Virus record (IMG/VR): IMGVR_UViG_2667527789_000017
From: a virus
Taxonomy: Duplodnaviria; Heunggongvirae; Uroviricota; Caudoviricetes
Reading direction: 5' to 3' (one strand)
DNA: 9,399 nt
Shown: positions 2,796 through 8,518 of the stretch, one piece after another
How positions within the stretch are numbered: position 1 is the first letter of the stretch
Layout of the letters: every line of letters begins with the position of its first letter
Translations under genes and position numbers: made by a program
Notes under the pieces: generated by a model
What the model was told of the DNA's origin: nothing
The model's input: the letters and a program-made list of their open reading frames with translations, nothing else
The model's database searches: none

Positions 2796-3677
2796 TTACA
2801 TAGATGTTTCGTTTAATTCTTCCCGACAAACGCTGTAAACGTCGGTGGCTTTTGCCAGCAGTTCGTCATCATCTGAAAGTTTTTGTGCAATGTATTTGTA
2901 AGCCTTATCCAGTTCGGAGACAGTGCTGTAATTCATCGCTGCGCTGGTAAAGGCCATCAGCATTTCTTCTGGATCACGGCTATCCGCTTTACGCGTTTGC
3001 TCATCATGCTTTTTCGCTGGTTTAGCGTTGATCAGACTGTTCATTCCCGCAGCAGTAGTCGTTTGCGGAGTAATGTCTCGCTCAACACGCGGTGCCGTTT
3101 CCTGTAATTCGTCAGGGGTGTAAACACCGAGAAGCACATCAGGAGCGTGCAGGCGAGCCCATCGTTTCGTGCAAAGATAGGCAAGCTGCTGGCGCGGATC
3201 CTGTTCCCACAATGGAGAGTTACGCACTCCGGCTTGCGCCATACTGATGGTAAGCTCACGGGGTTCTGCTTCTCCTTTAAGAACTGCTGACACAGTTACC
3301 GTCAGATTCGGTGATTTATCTGTTTTGCCGTTAACATTCGACCAGTCACCGCTCCAGCGATAATTCAGGCGTGTCGCTAGCAGGCTGGAAGAGGATACGA
3401 CCGCGTTTACCAACTGTGCTTCGTAGCCTAACGTTCCGTTTACCACATGCGTTTTCTGCGCCACGGCGAAAGGGTTCATTCCCCACTGTGCCGCCTGCAT
3501 GGTCACCGCCAGACAATCGGCAGGTTTGCCTTCAAGATGTTTCGGTACAGTCGCTTTGCTTTGTGACATCAACTCCGCGAAACGCACCAGTTGATTCATG
3601 CCCTCCGGGCTGAAGATTGCCGCAGCAGTACCTACAGTTGCGCCTGGTTGTGATGTGATTGCGATATCATTGCTCAT
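2796..3677 (-). CDS. bet: Bet/Redbeta-family single-strand annealing protein (RecT superfamily)
   Basis: 293-aa ORF; local similarity by eye to lambda Bet (window NPFAVAQK... / RQQLAYLCTKRWARLHAPDVLLGVYTPDELQE / RVERDITPQ versus lambda NPWTKEIYAF... / MLRHKAMIQCARLAFGFAGIYDKDEAER / ERQPERDITP). ATG at 3677 overlaps the exonuclease stop (ATGA). Confidence 0.85.
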   Translation of the reverse strand: MSNDIAITSQPGATVGTAAAIFSPEGMNQLVRFAELMSQSKATVPKHLEGKPADCLAVTMQAAQWGMNPFAVAQKTHVVNGTLGYEAQLVNAVVSSSSLLATRLNYRWSGDWSNVNGKTDKSPNLTVTVSAVLKGEAEPRELTISMAQAGVRNSPLWEQDPRQQLAYLCTKRWARLHAPDVLLGVYTPDELQETAPRVERDITPQTTTAAGMNSLINAKPAKKHDEQTRKADSRDPEEMLMAFTSAAMNYSTVSELDKAYKYIAQKLSDDDELLAKATDVYSVCREELNETSM

Positions 3678-4495
3678 ACGTACATATCCTGTTTACGTGC
3701 CCAGTCAGGGCGTTTAATAATTTCCACTCCGCCCCACTCATCGTTGATGCGGCATTCGTGATAGGTATTCAGATCCCGGCGGAACAGAGCGTGCCCGGCA
3801 TCGACATCCGGCGCATCCAGCTCGAACACGCGTACCGGATACCGACCACAATCAATGCTTTCGCTCACGGCAAGAAAGAAAAAACCATGCGGCTGACCAG
3901 TAACCCTCATTGCGCCTTCGCGGTACATTGCGTCCTGCACGTGGTAGCGGAATTCCTCGATGTGGCGTGCAAAACGGTCCATATCTGCAACCTTTTTCAC
4001 GTCGACGATCACGTTGTGCTCGTTCAGCCATTTGTCTGGACGAATGCGGCACAACTCACCAGTATCTTCATCGTTCCAGTACATTGATGCTTCGCAGTAA
4101 CCAGGTGCTTCCAGCATCCAGCGTGCCGCCGGGTGAGCCATTGCGCTATCACGCATCATCTCCAGTTTCCGCCACTGCTCGGCATCAAGTACCGTAATCC
4201 CCATATCCGCCACATCACGAAGAAATGCCTCTTCGTCAGCTTTACCTTGTTTCGTCCGACGATCGAATTTCGGTGAAACAATGAAGCGTTTGTCGAACTC
4301 TCCAGGCTCCAGAAGCAGACAGTGCAATGCGGTTCCCATATCCAGTGCAGACTTTTTCTCTTCGTCTTCTGGTGCTGCCTGAACCCATTTAAGAAGCGCC
4401 GGATTCTTGGCAACCATGTCCAGTTGCGACTTACTCACGCCGTCACCGGCGTGGTAGTCTTCGTTGCTGATGTCGAAATAAATTCCCGGTTTCAT
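3674..4495 (-). CDS. RecE-like PD-(D/E)XK exonuclease (exonuclease VIII C-terminal-domain type)
   Basis: 273-aa ORF beginning MKPGIYFDISNEDYHAGDGVSKSQL, the typical N-terminal signature of the short RecE-like / PDDEXK phage exonucleases; candidate catalytic residues in RIRPD ... IVDVKK (D ... D-x-K). Directly upstream of and translationally coupled to the annealing-protein gene. Confidence 0.8.
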   Translation of the reverse strand: MKPGIYFDISNEDYHAGDGVSKSQLDMVAKNPALLKWVQAAPEDEEKKSALDMGTALHCLLLEPGEFDKRFIVSPKFDRRTKQGKADEEAFLRDVADMGITVLDAEQWRKLEMMRDSAMAHPAARWMLEAPGYCEASMYWNDEDTGELCRIRPDKWLNEHNVIVDVKKVADMDRFARHIEEFRYHVQDAMYREGAMRVTGQPHGFFFLAVSESIDCGRYPVRVFELDAPDVDAGHALFRRDLNTYHECRINDEWGGVEIIKRPDWARKQDMYV

Positions 4496-5078: not shown

Positions 5079-5099
5079 TACTTGCTGAAAACTATAGTT

Positions 5100-5684
5100 T
5101 TATTGTTTGCTTTTTTCGTTCTGGTTGATGACAAATTCAATGTAACTTTCGATCTTTGCTTTCTCGGTTTCGGGTAACAATGCGTAGCGCGAGCGGTCAT
5201 AGTTGATAGTCGCGGGGTCGTGCGGGTGAATCAGTAATTCATATCCGTGACGCCCGAATGCGGATGCAACATTCTCCAGGGTGGAAATGGAAACGCTGAC
5301 CTCATTGTTTAACAGGCGGCTGATTGTCACCTGGGCGACGCCGGATGCGCGGTGAAGTTTTCCCTGCGTTGAAAGGTCGCGGCTTTCGCTCATCCAGCGT
5401 TCCAGGTTGTGAGCCGCCAGCTGACCAATGTCGCTTGGTCCGACAGGCTGAAAACCTTCCTGAGAAAGCGAGCGATCGATATCAAGCCAGTTACGGGGTT
5501 TATTGGCGGCAGCTTCAATTTTTCGCGCAACCTGGTCGCCGATAACCTTCTTGCCAAGAGCCCAGCGGTTTACCAGATTTGCCTGAGTTCCAAGTTTTTC
5601 TGCCATCCGCGTCTGAACACCATTGAATTCACGGTCGATCAAGTCGTTGAGATTTTGCCTGCGGACGTCCTGGATACTTTTCAT
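5100..5684 (-). CDS. Prophage repressor (CI-like role) with two tandem Cro/C1-type HTH domains and no S24 peptidase domain
   Basis: 194-aa ORF divergent from a Cro-like gene across an operator-rich intergenic region. Two HTH_XRE-like segments: GVQTRMAEKLGTQANLVNRWALGKK and ASGVAQVTISRLLNNEVSVSISTLENVASAFG. C-terminus shows no LexA/CI-type autopeptidase signature. No SD within normal distance of the ATG at 5684, compatible with a leaderless or short-leader mRNA as for lambda cI from pRM. Confidence 0.75.
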   Translation of the reverse strand: MKSIQDVRRQNLNDLIDREFNGVQTRMAEKLGTQANLVNRWALGKKVIGDQVARKIEAAANKPRNWLDIDRSLSQEGFQPVGPSDIGQLAAHNLERWMSESRDLSTQGKLHRASGVAQVTISRLLNNEVSVSISTLENVASAFGRHGYELLIHPHDPATINYDRSRYALLPETEKAKIESYIEFVINQNEKSKQ

Positions 5685-5838: not shown

Positions 5839-6069
5839 ATGAGCGATAACGGACATTTCGATTTCAAAAAGCACTGGCTTGCACTTACTCCGGATGAGCG
5901 TGAAGCCTTCGCACAGGAAGCCGGAACGACGAGTCACTATATCCAGACTCACTTAACAGGTAAGCGCAAAATGCCAGGTAAGGTATTGATGAATGGGCTT
6001 TTTAAAGCCTGTAAAACAAGACAATGGCTGAGCTCAAAAGCAGAACTGGCATACTTCTTCTACTCATGA
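5839..6069 (+). CDS. Cro-like small HTH DNA-binding protein
   Basis: 76-aa ORF divergent from the repressor. AFAQEAGTTSHYIQTHLTGKRKMPGKVLMNGLFKAC resembles the Cro/YdaS-type HTH layout (compare lambda Cro [29 protein letters not shown]). Followed by a strong terminator. Confidence 0.7.
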   Translation: MSDNGHFDFKKHWLALTPDEREAFAQEAGTTSHYIQTHLTGKRKMPGKVLMNGLFKACKTRQWLSSKAELAYFFYS

Positions 6070-6139: not shown

Positions 6140-6217
6140 CAAAAAACCAAATCTGGTTGATCAAATTTTCCAATTGTGCAAAATAGCCAATATCAATAAC
6201 AAAAAGGGGCAGAAAAA

Positions 6218-6430
6218 TTGAAGATAGTAACCAGAATGGAGGCCGCAAAAGCCGGGTTAAATCGCTATTTCACAGGAAAGCGGTGCCGTCACGGCCATCT
6301 CTCTGAAAGGTATGTTCTGAACGGAACATGTGTTGAATGTGCAATGAATAGCGCCAACCGCCATCGTAATGAATTTGCTTGTGCACTAAAGAGTGCAAGA
6401 GGGGAAACCTATGGCAAGCAGCTGGATTAA
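6218..6430 (+). CDS. Small protein with putative zinc-binding motif (C-x-H-x-H ... C-x2-C), function unknown
   Basis: 70-aa ORF from TTG at 6218 preceded by AAAGGGG 8 nt upstream; an internal ATG at 6236 has no SD. Motif GKRCRHGHLSERYVLNGTCVEC. Occupies the position between cro and the replication genes where lambda has cII, but shows no similarity to CII. 3' end overlaps the next gene by 20 nt. Confidence 0.5.
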   Translation: MKIVTRMEAAKAGLNRYFTGKRCRHGHLSERYVLNGTCVECAMNSANRHRNEFACALKSARGETYGKQLD

Positions 6431-7247
6431 GGTTGAAGTTATCACTCCTGATAAACCTGAAATTTTTCAGATAGCAGAAATTCTGGGTATTGATCCAGAT
6501 GCTGTTCTTGGAAAGCTGGTTCGTATATGGGCATGGGCTGACCAGCAAACAATAGACGGTAACGCTGGCAGCGTTACAAAAGGAGTACTTGATAGACTCG
6601 CTTTTATTACAGGATTTGCTGACGCCCTCATTAGCGTCGGATGGCTTGCTTATCATGACGGTAAACTAATTCTTCCAAACTTTGAGCGACACAATGGAGA
6701 ATCATCGAAAAAACGTGCACTTACGAATAGAAGAGTGGCAGAGCATCGAAAACGAGTAACGCAAAAAGTAACGCCAACAGCGTTACAAAAGGAGTTACCA
6801 GAGGAAGAGGAAGAGGAAGAGGAAGATATATATAAAACCCCACACATAGCGCACGTGCGCGAGGGTGCTCCGACCAGTGAAGCGAACGGTATGCCGTTGC
6901 AGGTGGCTGAACCTGAATTTCTGGATGGCCTGAGTGAACCCATCGGGAAATTTCCGATGACCGATGGTTGGCATCCGTCGCCGGATTTTCGACGGCGTGC
7001 TGTGCTGTGGGGAACGGCCCTGCCGGAACCGGAATTTACACCTGCTGAACTTGCTGCATTCCGGGATTACTGGATGGCTGAGGGCAAAGTGTTCACGCAG
7101 GTTCAGTGGGAACAAAAATTCGCCAGGCACGTAAATCATATCAGGGGAAAATCAAAAAACGCCGGGAAAAGCGATGAGCTTGACTGGAATAACACTGACT
7201 GGATAGAAGGGGTGTGGGATGAAATCAACTCCAGAACTTCTCAATGA
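6411..7247 (+). CDS. Replication initiation protein: phage replisome-organiser-like N-terminal region fused to a DnaT-like C-terminal domain
   Basis: ATG at 6411 preceded by AAGAGGGG with 6-nt spacing; the ORF-track start at 6393 has no SD. C-terminal IGKFPMTDGWHPSPDFRRRAVLWGTALPEPEFTPAELAAFRDYWMAEGKVFTQVQWEQKFARH aligns by eye with E. coli DnaT [61 protein letters not shown]. N-terminal SWIKVEVITPDKPEIFQIAEILGIDPDAVLGKLVRIWAWADQ resembles phage replisome-organiser N-domains. Central poly-Glu linker. Confidence 0.85.
   Translation: MASSWIKVEVITPDKPEIFQIAEILGIDPDAVLGKLVRIWAWADQQTIDGNAGSVTKGVLDRLAFITGFADALISVGWLAYHDGKLILPNFERHNGESSKKRALTNRRVAEHRKRVTQKVTPTALQKELPEEEEEEEEDIYKTPHIAHVREGAPTSEANGMPLQVAEPEFLDGLSEPIGKFPMTDGWHPSPDFRRRAVLWGTALPEPEFTPAELAAFRDYWMAEGKVFTQVQWEQKFARHVNHIRGKSKNAGKSDELDWNNTDWIEGVWDEINSRTSQ
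6559..6577. repeat. Inverted repeat GTAACGC-TGGCA-GCGTTAC followed by AAAAGGAGT (copy 1 of intragenic repeat)
   Basis: Directly read; 7-bp arms with 5-bp spacer, inside the replication-initiator gene. Confidence 0.7.
6756..6786. repeat. GTAACGC half-site (6756-6762) plus inverted repeat GTAACGC-CAACA-GCGTTAC (6768-6786) followed by AAAAGGAGT (copy 2)
   Basis: Shares GTAACGC ... CAGCGTTACAAAAGGAGT with copy 1 but sits in a different codon phase of the same gene (copy 1 starts at codon position 2, copy 2 at position 1), so the repeat is conserved at the DNA level rather than the protein level. Confidence 0.7.
6801..6824 (+). repeat. Hexanucleotide tandem repeat (GAGGAA)x4 encoding a poly-Glu linker
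   Basis: gaggaagaggaagaggaagaggaa read directly; translates as EEEEEEEE in the initiator gene and is followed by AT-rich GATATATATATAAAA. Confidence 0.9.
6849..6860. repeat. Perfect 12-bp palindrome GCGCACGTGCGC
   Basis: Read directly; lies just downstream of the AT-rich stretch inside the initiator gene. Confidence 0.7.
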
Positions 7248-7995
7248 GTACGATCGCTTACGTGAGCATGGTGTTGATGTGCATGAAGAGCGGCGTGGCA
7301 GCAATGGCAAAAAGGAGCAGGTTGCTAGAATTTTCAATGAACTATTTGTCCAGTTACAGGCTGCATTTCCTGCAAGCGTTTCGACCATAAGGGAGCAGAA
7401 CAAACTTAATGAATTCCGTAAGCAATGGATGCTTGCGTTTCTGGAGAATGGGATCACTACAATGGAACAGGTTAACGCTGGTATGCGCCACGCTCGCGCC
7501 AGTGAGTCTCCGTTCTGGCCGTCGCCAGGGCAATTCATCAAGTGGTGTAAAGACAGCAAGATGGTTCTTGGCGTCACCATTGACGATGTGATGGCGGAGT
7601 TTCACCGGTACAGCAAGGAAAAAAGTTTATATCCTGGTGGTCCCGAAAGATTCCCGTGGTGGCATCCGGTTATGTACTGGGTCGTATGTGATACCCGCCG
7701 TGCAATGTATCAGCGCCAGCTTAGCGAGATTGAGGTTGAGAAACACGCGCGCAGGCTGCTCGATGATTGGGCGAAAAAGGTGGCTTCCGGACAGCAGATA
7801 CCCGATCCGGTGATCAGCATACAGGCAAAGCCAGAACCCATGAGTACGCCTCCGGACACAGGGAGAGACGTTTACCATCCACCAGGGCGAAGTTTCGGGT
7901 GTATGCCTAACGCCGCCACCCTGGGGGGAATAACACCGGCGCAGTGGCTGATGGAGGAATGCAGGCGGGGAAAGGCGTCAGGATTTATCAAGTAA
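7219..7995 (+). CDS. P: Replication protein P homologue (lambda P-like helicase-loader)
   Basis: 258-aa ORF; VARIFNELFVQLQAAFPASVSTIREQNKLNEFRKQWMLAFLENGITTMEQVNAGMRHARASESPFWPSPGQFIKWC is near-colinear with lambda P VAQIINGVFSQLLATFPASLANRDQNEVNEIRRQWVLAFRENGITTMEQVNAGMRVARRQNRPFLPSPGQFVAWC. ATG at 7219 preceded by GAAGGGG; overlaps the 3' end of the initiator gene by 29 nt. Confidence 0.9.
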   Translation: MKSTPELLNEYDRLREHGVDVHEERRGSNGKKEQVARIFNELFVQLQAAFPASVSTIREQNKLNEFRKQWMLAFLENGITTMEQVNAGMRHARASESPFWPSPGQFIKWCKDSKMVLGVTIDDVMAEFHRYSKEKSLYPGGPERFPWWHPVMYWVVCDTRRAMYQRQLSEIEVEKHARRLLDDWAKKVASGQQIPDPVISIQAKPEPMSTPPDTGRDVYHPPGRSFGCMPNAATLGGITPAQWLMEECRRGKASGFIK

Positions 7996-8032: not shown

Positions 8033-8047
8033 TTACCTGTTGGGTAA
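8033..8047. promoter_or_regulatory. Operator-like palindrome TTACCTGTTGGGTAA
   Basis: Perfect TTACC-N5-GGTAA, upstream of the promoter-like elements that precede the gene at 8113. Confidence 0.7.
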
Positions 8048-8066
8048 TAAAATATTCTAAAATCTA

Positions 8067-8095
8067 TTGATTTAGTGTCTTATGTGGTTTTTAAT
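8067..8095 (+). promoter_or_regulatory. Putative sigma70 promoter for the downstream operon
   Basis: -35 TTGATT (8067-8072), 17-bp spacer, -10 TTTAAT (8090-8095); predicted start site falls inside operator site 8096-8110. Confidence 0.45.
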
Positions 8096-8110
8096 TACCT
8101 TAGAGGTAAA
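8096..8110. promoter_or_regulatory. Operator-like palindrome TTACCTTAGAGGTAA overlapping the transcription start and RBS of the gene at 8113
   Basis: Perfect TTACC-N5-GGTAA; its GAGG doubles as the Shine-Dalgarno sequence 6 nt before ATG 8113; centre 63 bp from the centre of site 8033-8047. Confidence 0.7.
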
Positions 8111-8112
8111 TC

Positions 8113-8457
8113 ATGAGAAAACAGATACAGGCTCTTGGTCGACTCAAAACAGGCCAGATGAACAAAACAGAATCTGCGTATTGCCAGCACCTTGAGCTGC
8201 GTAAACGTGCAGGAGAAATCGTCTGGTATCGATTTGAGGGTATCAAGCTGCGGTTAGCTGACAACACGTTCTATACGCCCGATTTTGCTGTGATGCTCGC
8301 CACCGGCGAGATGGAACTGCACGAAGTGAAAGGTTTCTGGACCGACGACGCCAGGGTGAAAACCAAAGTCGCCGCAGATCAGTATCCGTTCCGAATCATC
8401 GGGGTAACGGTTAAACCAAAGAAAGCAGGTGGTGGCTGGAACATCGAAGAGTTCTGA
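8113..8457 (+). CDS. DUF1064-like phage protein with PD-(D/E)XK nuclease-type motif (putative structure-specific nuclease)
   Basis: 114-aa ORF; FYTPDFAVM ... ELHEVKG gives a D ... E-x-K arrangement typical of PD-(D/E)XK nucleases. Overall pattern recalls the DUF1064 family of small phage proteins, assigned from memory only. Confidence 0.6.
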   Translation: MRKQIQALGRLKTGQMNKTESAYCQHLELRKRAGEIVWYRFEGIKLRLADNTFYTPDFAVMLATGEMELHEVKGFWTDDARVKTKVAADQYPFRIIGVTVKPKKAGGGWNIEEF

Positions 8458-8518
8458 ATCGACGATCTTTTTAGTTATCAATGTAATCAATAAGTTATGT
8501 GGATAAGCGAGGGTAAAG

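Follow-up and report, generated by a model that had tools for sequence, protein, structure and literature searches.

A 9,399-nucleotide (nt) stretch of DNA from the IMG/VR virus record IMGVR_UViG_2667527789_000017 (Caudoviricetes), in the following called the window, was analyzed for elements of replication initiation. From its sequence, the segment 6559–6866 is with high probability the replication origin of a prophage, embedded in the gene of its own initiator. An intragenic origin of a large family of initiators is the best description of it; this origin would work like that of phage lambda (ori-lambda), with an initiator that is not homologous to lambda O. The initiator gene, whose product comprises 278 amino acids (aa), and the parts of the putative origin are located as follows.

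6411–7247, plus strand: replication initiator gene, 278 aa (open reading frame and translation, PHROG 2509)
6559–6577, unstranded: site cluster 1, palindrome GTAACGC-N5-GCGTTAC, encoding the loop G-N-A-G-S-V-T; the flank AAAAGGAGT at 6578–6586 is conserved
6756–6798, unstranded: site cluster 2, nested dyad of four half-sites in 12-base pair (bp) steps
6800–6826, plus (coding) strand: polypurine tract including (GAGGAA)x4 at 6801–6824, encoding the acidic linker EEEEEEEE
6825–6837, unstranded: AT tract GATATATATAAAA, 13 nt
6838–6866, unstranded: GC-rich block CCCCACACATAGCGCACGTGCGCGAGGG, which holds a 12-bp palindrome at 6849–6860; with −50.7 kcal/mol the most stable segment nearby

Two clusters of half-sites are conserved at the DNA level

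A repeat search returned a 28-nt repeat, GTAACGC-N5-GCGTTAC-AAAAGGAGT, in two copies of 89% identity that differ in three bases of the spacer (GTAACGC-TGGCA-GCGTTAC-AAAAGGAGT at 6559–6586 and GTAACGC-CAACA-GCGTTAC-AAAAGGAGT at 6768–6795). Both copies, together with a third half-site GTAACGC at 6756–6762, had been pointed out in an earlier note on this DNA and are indeed present. A fourth, degenerate half-site (GAGTTAC, 6792–6798), which that note did not list, completes cluster 2 as an array of GTAACGC at 6756 and 6768, GCGTTAC at 6780 and GAGTTAC at 6792. Of the half-sites in the initiator gene, five are exact and one is degenerate, and they form two clusters separated by about 200 bp. On both strands of the window GTAACGC occurs six times compared to an expected 0.91 times, a number that was reached in 0 of 200 shuffles, and five of these six copies fall within 6559–6786. 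Counted from the start codon ATG at 6411, site 1 begins at codon position 2 (G-N-A-G-S-V-T-K-G-V) and site 2 at codon position 1 (V-T-P-T-A-L-Q-K-E-L), and the assertion that the two copies lie in different codon phases is therefore correct.

GTAACGC-N5-GCGTTAC is under selection at the level of the DNA. Close relatives with 68–83% DNA identity (Enterobacter phage BUCT554, Klebsiella phage ST11-OXA245phi3.2, E. coli phage 666R9 and a Rac-type prophage) were aligned, and both palindromes proved invariant in all four of them, with drift at the surrounding third codon positions. The Rac-type genes contain a 12-bp insertion that adds a GTAACGC before site 1, and their site 2 is read in another frame than that of the window. 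Among 43 unique sequences of the close clade, a set for which the left arms had served as selection criterion, third-position entropy was 0 in the arms, 0.89 in the spacers and 0.92 in the rest of the gene; an unbiased re-selection of this clade took in sequences bearing insertions and deletions, and per-column entropy was blurred.

The comparison was then extended by 190 loci that were retrieved from collections of viruses and of genomes, with hosts including Pseudomonas, Planctomycetota (Stieleria, Roseiconus), Verrucomicrobia and Limnohabitans. TAACG-N7-CGTTA was present at approximately nt 150 and again at approximately nt 340–395 of the gene in nearly all of these loci, its spacers varying freely, and both clusters were found from Enterobacteria to phages of Pseudomonas and Xanthomonas and to Planctomycetota. 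For 39 non-redundant representatives (<80% identity), the codons at site 1 were compared with codon use in the same genes as background. Glycine is encoded by GGT in 32 of 32 cases (background 22%), asparagine by AAC in 39 of 39 (63%), serine by AGC in 29 of 29 (25%) and valine by GTT in 38 of 39 (30%). The codon phase of site 2 is 2 in 28 representatives and 1 in eight, and depending on the frame the site encodes NAxSVT or VTxxAL. Unpaired additional half-sites in direct orientation and in 11–12-bp steps are common, the one at 6756 being an example, and reach a number of up to 11 in locus L131. In the close relative TL-2011b, whose genome comprises 44.8 kb, the full palindrome has no further occurrence outside this gene. 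The arms are conserved across codon phases and phyla, and the spacers and encoded peptides vary, which bears out the idea that selection acts on the DNA and not on the peptide. Relatives conserving the peptide without the DNA repeats had been named as the finding that would speak against this idea; the opposite was seen.

Half-sites and initiator change together

Divergent members of the family show the same architecture with a different half-site, which is used at both clusters. Examples are GTCACGC (L101, L111), GTTGCGC (L106, eight copies), GTGACGC (L107, L154), GTAGACG (L110) and GTCCGAC (L112, L114), the last with cluster 1 shifted to nt 63–97. Likewise, gp42 of Salmonella phage epsilon15, with 35% identity in the N-terminal domain, has the same origin layout and the half-site GTCCGC at nt 66 and 345. 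On the protein side, R-V follows the RHNG motif in the basic helix in 23 of 23 members of the GTAACGC type (R108-V109 in the window protein), and V is replaced by K, Q, M or N in nine of nine members with other half-sites. That this residue varies with the type of half-site points to the N-terminal domain as the part of the protein that reads the sites.

A polypurine tract and an AT tract follow the last half-site

The last half-site ends 1–2 nt before a run of 11–39 nt composed of purines only in 39 of 41 representatives. This run usually has the form CC(A/T)AGAGAAGAGAAGAGAAG, with a TA-rich stretch coming next, and its repeat is (GAGGAA)4 in the window and (GAGAA)n in most of the family. It is found in three codon phases (33, 11 and 1 representatives) and encodes PEKRREEK, REEKRRED or QRREEKN, or poly-Glu in the case of (GAGGAA)n in the clade of the window, which argues that a property of the DNA is kept and not a peptide. 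In the window, the pure-purine run of 27 nt at 6800–6826, longer than in every one of 300 shuffles (maximum 24), encloses the (GAGGAA)x4 repeat that the earlier note had listed. The note had further suspected slippage of the hexamer and suggested a check of its copy number; two, three or four copies exist in the near-identical lineage and up to five in others, and slippage is confirmed by this variation. The AT run next to it exists as described, but it measures 13 nt from 6825 to 6837 and not 15 nt from 6823, the former reading having included one TA too many.

Nearest-neighbor calculation yielded −34.1 kcal/mol for 6807–6837, which places this segment among the 1.4% least stable 30-step windows; no duplex segment within the long open reading frames of the window is less stable than the purine and AT tracts together. 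We propose that the polypurine tract is part of an unwinding element, and that the GC-rich block, which directly adjoins this least stable segment, is likely its stable boundary. Other modules have similar GC or C-run blocks after their AT tract, and relatives carry C-runs (CCCCCCTAACCCCCC...GGGGGG) or alternating GC after the TA-rich stretch. In L002, L095, L104, L135, L156, L175 and others, which are members with other C-terminal modules, a motif CCCCCC-TAA/ATA-CCCCCC, often followed by GGGGGG, lies just past the AT tract and encodes peptides of the 'PPNPP' type. This motif is absent from the window and has the appearance of a further element at the DNA level or of a GC clamp.

The 12-bp palindrome GCGCACGTGCGC at 6849–6860, which had been counted among the elements of the origin, is present as a sequence but had to be rejected as a functional element. 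The window holds two such palindromes, first-order Markov simulations give 2.5 on average, and the one at 6849–6860 is broken in near-identical relatives (GCACACGCGCGC, GCGCACGTGTGC). The other one, AAACTATAGTTT at 5089–5100, is located in the region of the 3′ end of the repressor gene.

The initiator protein and its family

With 1.8e-130 over aa 1–270, the 278-aa protein is a full-length match to PHROG 2509 ('replication initiation protein'). The following parts can be distinguished.

6411–6770, plus strand: N-terminal domain, aa 1–120, winged-helix-like, ending in a basic helix (aa 99–119)
6951–7163, plus strand: DnaT-like domain for binding single-stranded DNA (ssDNA), aa 181–251 (PF17948, 1.7e-18; PDB 6aep, 4ou6)
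7179–7214, plus strand: C-terminal tail L-D-W-N-N-T-D-W-I-E-G-V (LDWNNTDWIEGV), like the extreme C-terminus of lambda O, LDLTNTDWIYGV

PF17948 (DnaT) is the sole domain returned by the Pfam scan. The C-terminal part matches the DnaT C-domain entries 6aep and 4ou6 in the PDB with 5e-21 to 1e-19, and the DnaT-like domain is a putative binder of ssDNA. The NCBIfam equivalog for DnaT itself (NF002770) is matched by aa 174–254 alone and with 90.8 bits, below its cutoff of 201, which places the protein outside this equivalog. No Pfam model exists for the N-terminal domain, and its profile yielded no match at E ≤ 1 among PDB sequences; its long basic helix (aa 99–119) is presumed to be the reader of the half-sites. 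According to the AlphaFold2 (AF2) model, the linker is disordered from approximately aa 119. Site 1 encodes the loop between helices 2 and 3, and site 2 as well as the purine and AT tracts encode this disordered linker.

The N-terminal domain of lambda O (Phage_rep_O, PF04492) was not detected in the initiator by Pfam at E ≤ 0.01, and BLASTP against lambda O aligned solely the last approximately 55 residues (aa 215–268 with 245–297, E 0.003). NTDWIxGV stands at the very end of both proteins. To judge from this likeness, the tail may be the contact for a P-type loader, which fits with the presence of a P gene downstream in both lambda and the window.

Matches to the N-terminal domain by itself were found in 7116 clusters at 50% identity, and 4783 of these match at E ≤ 1e-10. 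Among the 139 best representatives, 116 carry the peptide signature of site 1, 110 that of site 2 in one of its two frames, and 101 the peptide of the purine tract. The DnaT-like domain is absent from many family members. The family spans epsilon15-like phages of Salmonella and E. coli, Rac-like prophages, and phages of Xanthomonas, Pseudomonas and Ralstonia, and the present annotations of its genes read 'primosomal protein I', 'DnaT-like' or 'hypothetical'; the first of these is explained by the homology of the C-domain to the ssDNA-binding domain of DnaT.

The chromosome of Stieleria magnilauensis contains two genes of the family (L087 and L088) about 44 kb apart, both with the same origin layout, which speaks for two related prophages or for duplication of an element. 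A plasmid collection was searched for small replicons that depend on the initiator gene alone, and the two records obtained, both phage-like circles, give weak support. The 'plasmid' NC_015459 of Pusillimonas sp. T7-7 (L202) is a complete circular phage genome of 41 kb that encodes integrase, capsid, tail and lysis proteins. For replication, no other genes are annotated in it than a member of the family and a DnaC-like ATPase, and the layout is the same as in the window.

Proposed mechanism and points against it

What binds the sites, as well as the looping, the unwinding, the recruitment of the loader and origin activity as such, we infer in the following way. Dimers of the N-terminal domain, by means of its winged-helix-like part and the basic helix, would bind the GTAACGC/GCGTTAC half-sites in the clusters 6559–6577 and 6756–6798, and the two clusters, about 20 helical turns apart, would probably be brought together in one nucleoprotein complex. 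This complex could then destabilize the adjoining purine-rich and AT segment 6800–6837, which is bounded by the GC-rich block. The DnaT-like C-domain would hold the resulting single strand, and the O-like C-terminal tail would recruit the P-type loader together with DnaB of the host.

Going one step further, the polypurine repeat might be a dedicated strand-specific initiation element, an idea that we regard as tentative and put forward as possible rather than probable. By analogy with the logic of DnaA-trios, the repeat could serve as a capture track that catches the single strand for the initiator or the loader. Alternatively, a purine-rich transcript could form a stable R-loop, which would open the origin.

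Several points weigh against an origin at 6559–6866. The AT tract is short (13 bp), the purine tract has a G+C content of 50%, and the window has several intergenic segments of lower stability than 6807–6837. The palindromic sites can also be read as hairpins, with site 2 scoring terminator-like on the minus strand. Ori-lambda has four adjacent iterons of 18 bp, whereas this family has two clusters of half-sites that are 190–245 bp apart. The spacing of the clusters is within 1.5 bp of whole helical turns in 25 of 36 cases, which is suggestive only and confounded by shared ancestry, and shared ancestry also confounds the correlation of residue and half-site. Furthermore, such an origin is not described in the searchable literature, in which subscription journals are poorly covered, and an older account is possible. 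The layout of the family, with paired sites, an all-purine tract and a short AT stretch, is found again in thousands of related genes of phages whose bacterial hosts are distant from each other, and seems never to have been described before.

Alternative explanations

The sites might serve control only, through autoregulation or as a transcription roadblock of the replication operon, with the origin located elsewhere, for example in AT-rich intergenic DNA downstream. Cluster 1, about 150 nt into the gene, is at a plausible position for a roadblock, and the downstream DNA offers less stable AT-rich intergenic segments (8045–8119, 8468–8498) and a perfect DnaA box (8498–8506). We nevertheless consider this unlikely, as the last half-site abuts the polypurine and AT tract in the 39 of 41 representatives whatever genes lie downstream, which is an arrangement of the origin type, as the family shows no conservation of these downstream regions, and as lambda has the same intragenic design with proven origin function.

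The genes of the family are mosaic in structure. BLAST matches to other types of modules begin or end at 6814–6835, and the AT tract is the joint at which C-terminal modules are exchanged. Four kinds of C-terminal module occur after the same tract. N-terminal domain, sites and purine tract are joined to a DnaT-like C-terminal part with a P-type loader, or to another C-terminal part ('...IPPGFRG') followed by a DnaC-like loader; in Klebsiella phage ST11-OXA245phi3.2, which has the '...IPPGFRG' type, no loader gene is annotated adjacent to it. Initiators of the DUF1376 type share the sequence of the window from the AT tract onward, and one of them has, upstream of it, repeats of its own (TGTTCAAACA, three copies) and a longer AT-rich stretch. 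The conserved tracts might accordingly be recombination linkers that are kept similar by module exchange and have no role in initiation. This is very improbable in our view: recent exchange cannot explain that half-sites and purine tract are conserved between genes from different phyla with flanking N-terminal domains of only 35–55% identity, and it leaves the second cluster within the N-terminal domain, the concerted change of half-sites and the fixed codons unexplained. An origin and an exchange joint are, moreover, compatible with each other, as in lambda. Neither sites for control only nor tracts that are mere linkers would explain all of the conserved arrangement.

As an example of the DUF1376-type initiators, the gene at nt 752–1762 of L199 (E. 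coli DG342-2) belongs to another initiator family, with a YdaU/DUF1376 N-terminal domain, and carries TGTTCAAACA three times, one copy inverted, and then an AT-rich stretch, after which the same CCCCACACATAACGCGCGCGTGCGCGAG block and the DnaT-like C-terminal part of the window follow. The rule that the origin is placed at the domain junction seems to hold in this initiator as well.

The palindromes have a still smaller chance of being hairpins of nucleic acid, be it an antisense terminator, an mRNA structure, a cruciform or a single-strand priming hairpin. The predicted hairpins reach −9.4 to −15.4 kcal/mol (z −2.5 to −5.0), the minus strand of site 2 resembles a terminator with four GC pairs followed by TTTTT, and complementarity is preserved where the arms change between clades. 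The sequence of the arms itself, however, is constant across 23 diverse clades with variable loops, both clusters of a genome always share their half-site, and many half-sites are the unpaired direct repeats in 11–12-bp steps mentioned above. The A-run before site 2 is not found family-wide, and an Rfam scan at gathering thresholds gave no match. The antisense terminator in particular was rejected; it fits only site 2 of the window, and that loosely. Site 1 has no T-run, and relatives have no A-run upstream of site 2.

Conservation of repeated peptide motifs with no function of the DNA is ruled out by the codon and frame tests and retains next to no probability, as GNAxSVT, although widely kept at site 1 and often recurring at site 2, is encoded by synonymous codons that are fixed far above background, as site 2 and the purine tract are read in different frames as unrelated peptides, and as the encoded peptides sit in a loop and a disordered tail.

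Genomic context

The window is the early region of a prophage of lambdoid organization, and in addition to the initiator gene it contains the following genes.

1–1251: integrase
2796–3677, minus strand: RecT
3674–4495, minus strand: PDDEXK exonuclease
5100–5684, minus strand: CI-type repressor
5839–6069: cro-like gene
6218–6430: small gene, 70 aa (PHROG 1081, function not known)
7219–7995, plus strand: gene for a lambda P-like helicase loader (Pfam PF06992, 5.7e-55; PHROG 109 'P-like helicase loader', 5.6e-87)

The initiator gene occupies the position of lambda O, after the repressor, the cro-like gene and small genes and before the P homolog. The first 29 nt of the loader gene (7219–7247) overlap the initiator gene at its 3′ end and are read in another frame, which suggests translational coupling. 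The open reading frame at 6218–6430, located at the position of lambda cII, contains Cys/His pairs (CRHGH...CVEC) that suggest a zinc ribbon, and it is kept in BUCT554 and the Klebsiella phage. Near-identical initiator genes were found by BLAST in the phages TL-2011b, vB_EcoP_ZX5 and HEMP4. Among 5426 complete E. coli genomes, 338 contain a match to the gene, and this match covers at least 80% of the gene in 113 of them.

Two AT-rich intergenic segments are located at 8045–8119 and 8458–8518, within which 8045–8075 and 8468–8498 rank among the least stable of the window. The latter borders on the perfect DnaA-box consensus TTATCCACA on the minus strand (8498–8506). These segments are probably promoter regions, and they could also be a second candidate site of unwinding.

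Implications

If an origin indeed resides at 6559–6866, an origin would be assigned to a very large and so far unclassified family of phage replication initiators. The layout accounts for where the recombination joints fall in the genes of this family. The order of a half-site array, CC, a purine repeat and a TA-rich stretch could serve as a signature for finding origins in prophages and in phage contigs from metagenomes. The members of the family further form a natural series of matched specificities of initiator and half-site for studies on origin recognition. The family would also be a clear case of a DNA element that shapes the protein by which it is read. Should the purine repeat be a strand-specific element, the needs of the origin DNA would have dictated residues of the initiator in the GNAxSVT loop and in the PEKRREEK or poly-E linker.

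Comparison with known systems

Ori-lambda lies inside gene O, as do the origins of other lambdoid phages including Stx phages (PMC7466680). The lambda record was retrieved and compared directly with the window. It contains four annotated iterons of the type TCCCTC-N6-GAGGGA and then CACAAAAGACACTATTACAAAAGAAAAAAGAAAAGATTATT, a stretch whose coding strand is rich in purines and which encodes the linker of O, followed by a GC-richer, partly palindromic segment. The annotated recombination points of lambda lie just past its AT region, matching the module joint of the window at 6814–6835.

Both origins would thus be placed inside the initiator gene, at the junction between a DNA-binding N-terminal domain and a loader-binding C-terminal part. 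Both have binding sites with internal dyad symmetry, then an easily melted purine-rich tract of the coding strand and then a GC-richer segment, both are followed by the gene of a P-type loader, both show module exchange just after the AT region, and both initiators end in a tail of the NTDWIxGV type. Of the features that define an origin of the ori-lambda type, repeated dyad sites in the initiator gene, a meltable purine-rich or AT region beside them, and the placement in the linker together with a P gene are all found in the window, whereas homology of the initiator to lambda O is not; its N-terminal domain has no detectable similarity to O. As homology to O is confined to the tail, the origin would work like ori-lambda without its initiator being a member of the O family. 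The comparison with the lambda origin drawn earlier hence stands for the order of sites, purine/AT tract and GC-rich segment, for the position in the linker and for the P gene, but not for the 12-bp palindrome nor for an initiator of the O kind. The sites had also been called iteron-like, which does not apply in the strict sense, as they are arrays of inverted half-sites in two clusters approximately 200 bp apart. Further differences concern the C-terminal part, which in the window is a DnaT-like ssDNA-binding domain, and the AT part, which is shorter than that of lambda.

In bacterial oriC, the basal unwinding system reportedly described by Richardson and colleagues in 2016 consists of a DnaA box followed by DnaA-trios. 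The resemblance lies in the sequence of a duplex site for the initiator, a short fixed gap, a short-period repeat on one strand and an AT-rich stretch. The repeat of the family, however, has a period of 5 or 6 nt and not of 3, its initiator is not an AAA+ protein, and binding of ssDNA is deduced here from the DnaT-like domain. No DnaA box (TTWTNCACA) is present in 6300–7000, the two matches in the whole window being located at 6175 and 8498.

The initiator shares with E. coli DnaT the homologous ssDNA-binding domain in its C-terminal part. It differs from DnaT in its N-terminal 140 residues, which are unrelated, and in being encoded by a phage-borne gene in a module of the O-P type. Iteron plasmids with a winged-helix Rep protein (pPS10, F and R6K type) carry direct repeats of 17–22 bp, in contrast to the inverted half-site arrays of the family, whose sites are intragenic and free of DnaA boxes and whose loader is encoded by the phage. 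Features particular to this family are therefore the split arrays of half-sites, one of them within the coding sequence of the DNA-binding domain itself, and the fixed, regular purine repeat, (GAGAA)n or (GAGGAA)n, 1–2 nt beside the last site.

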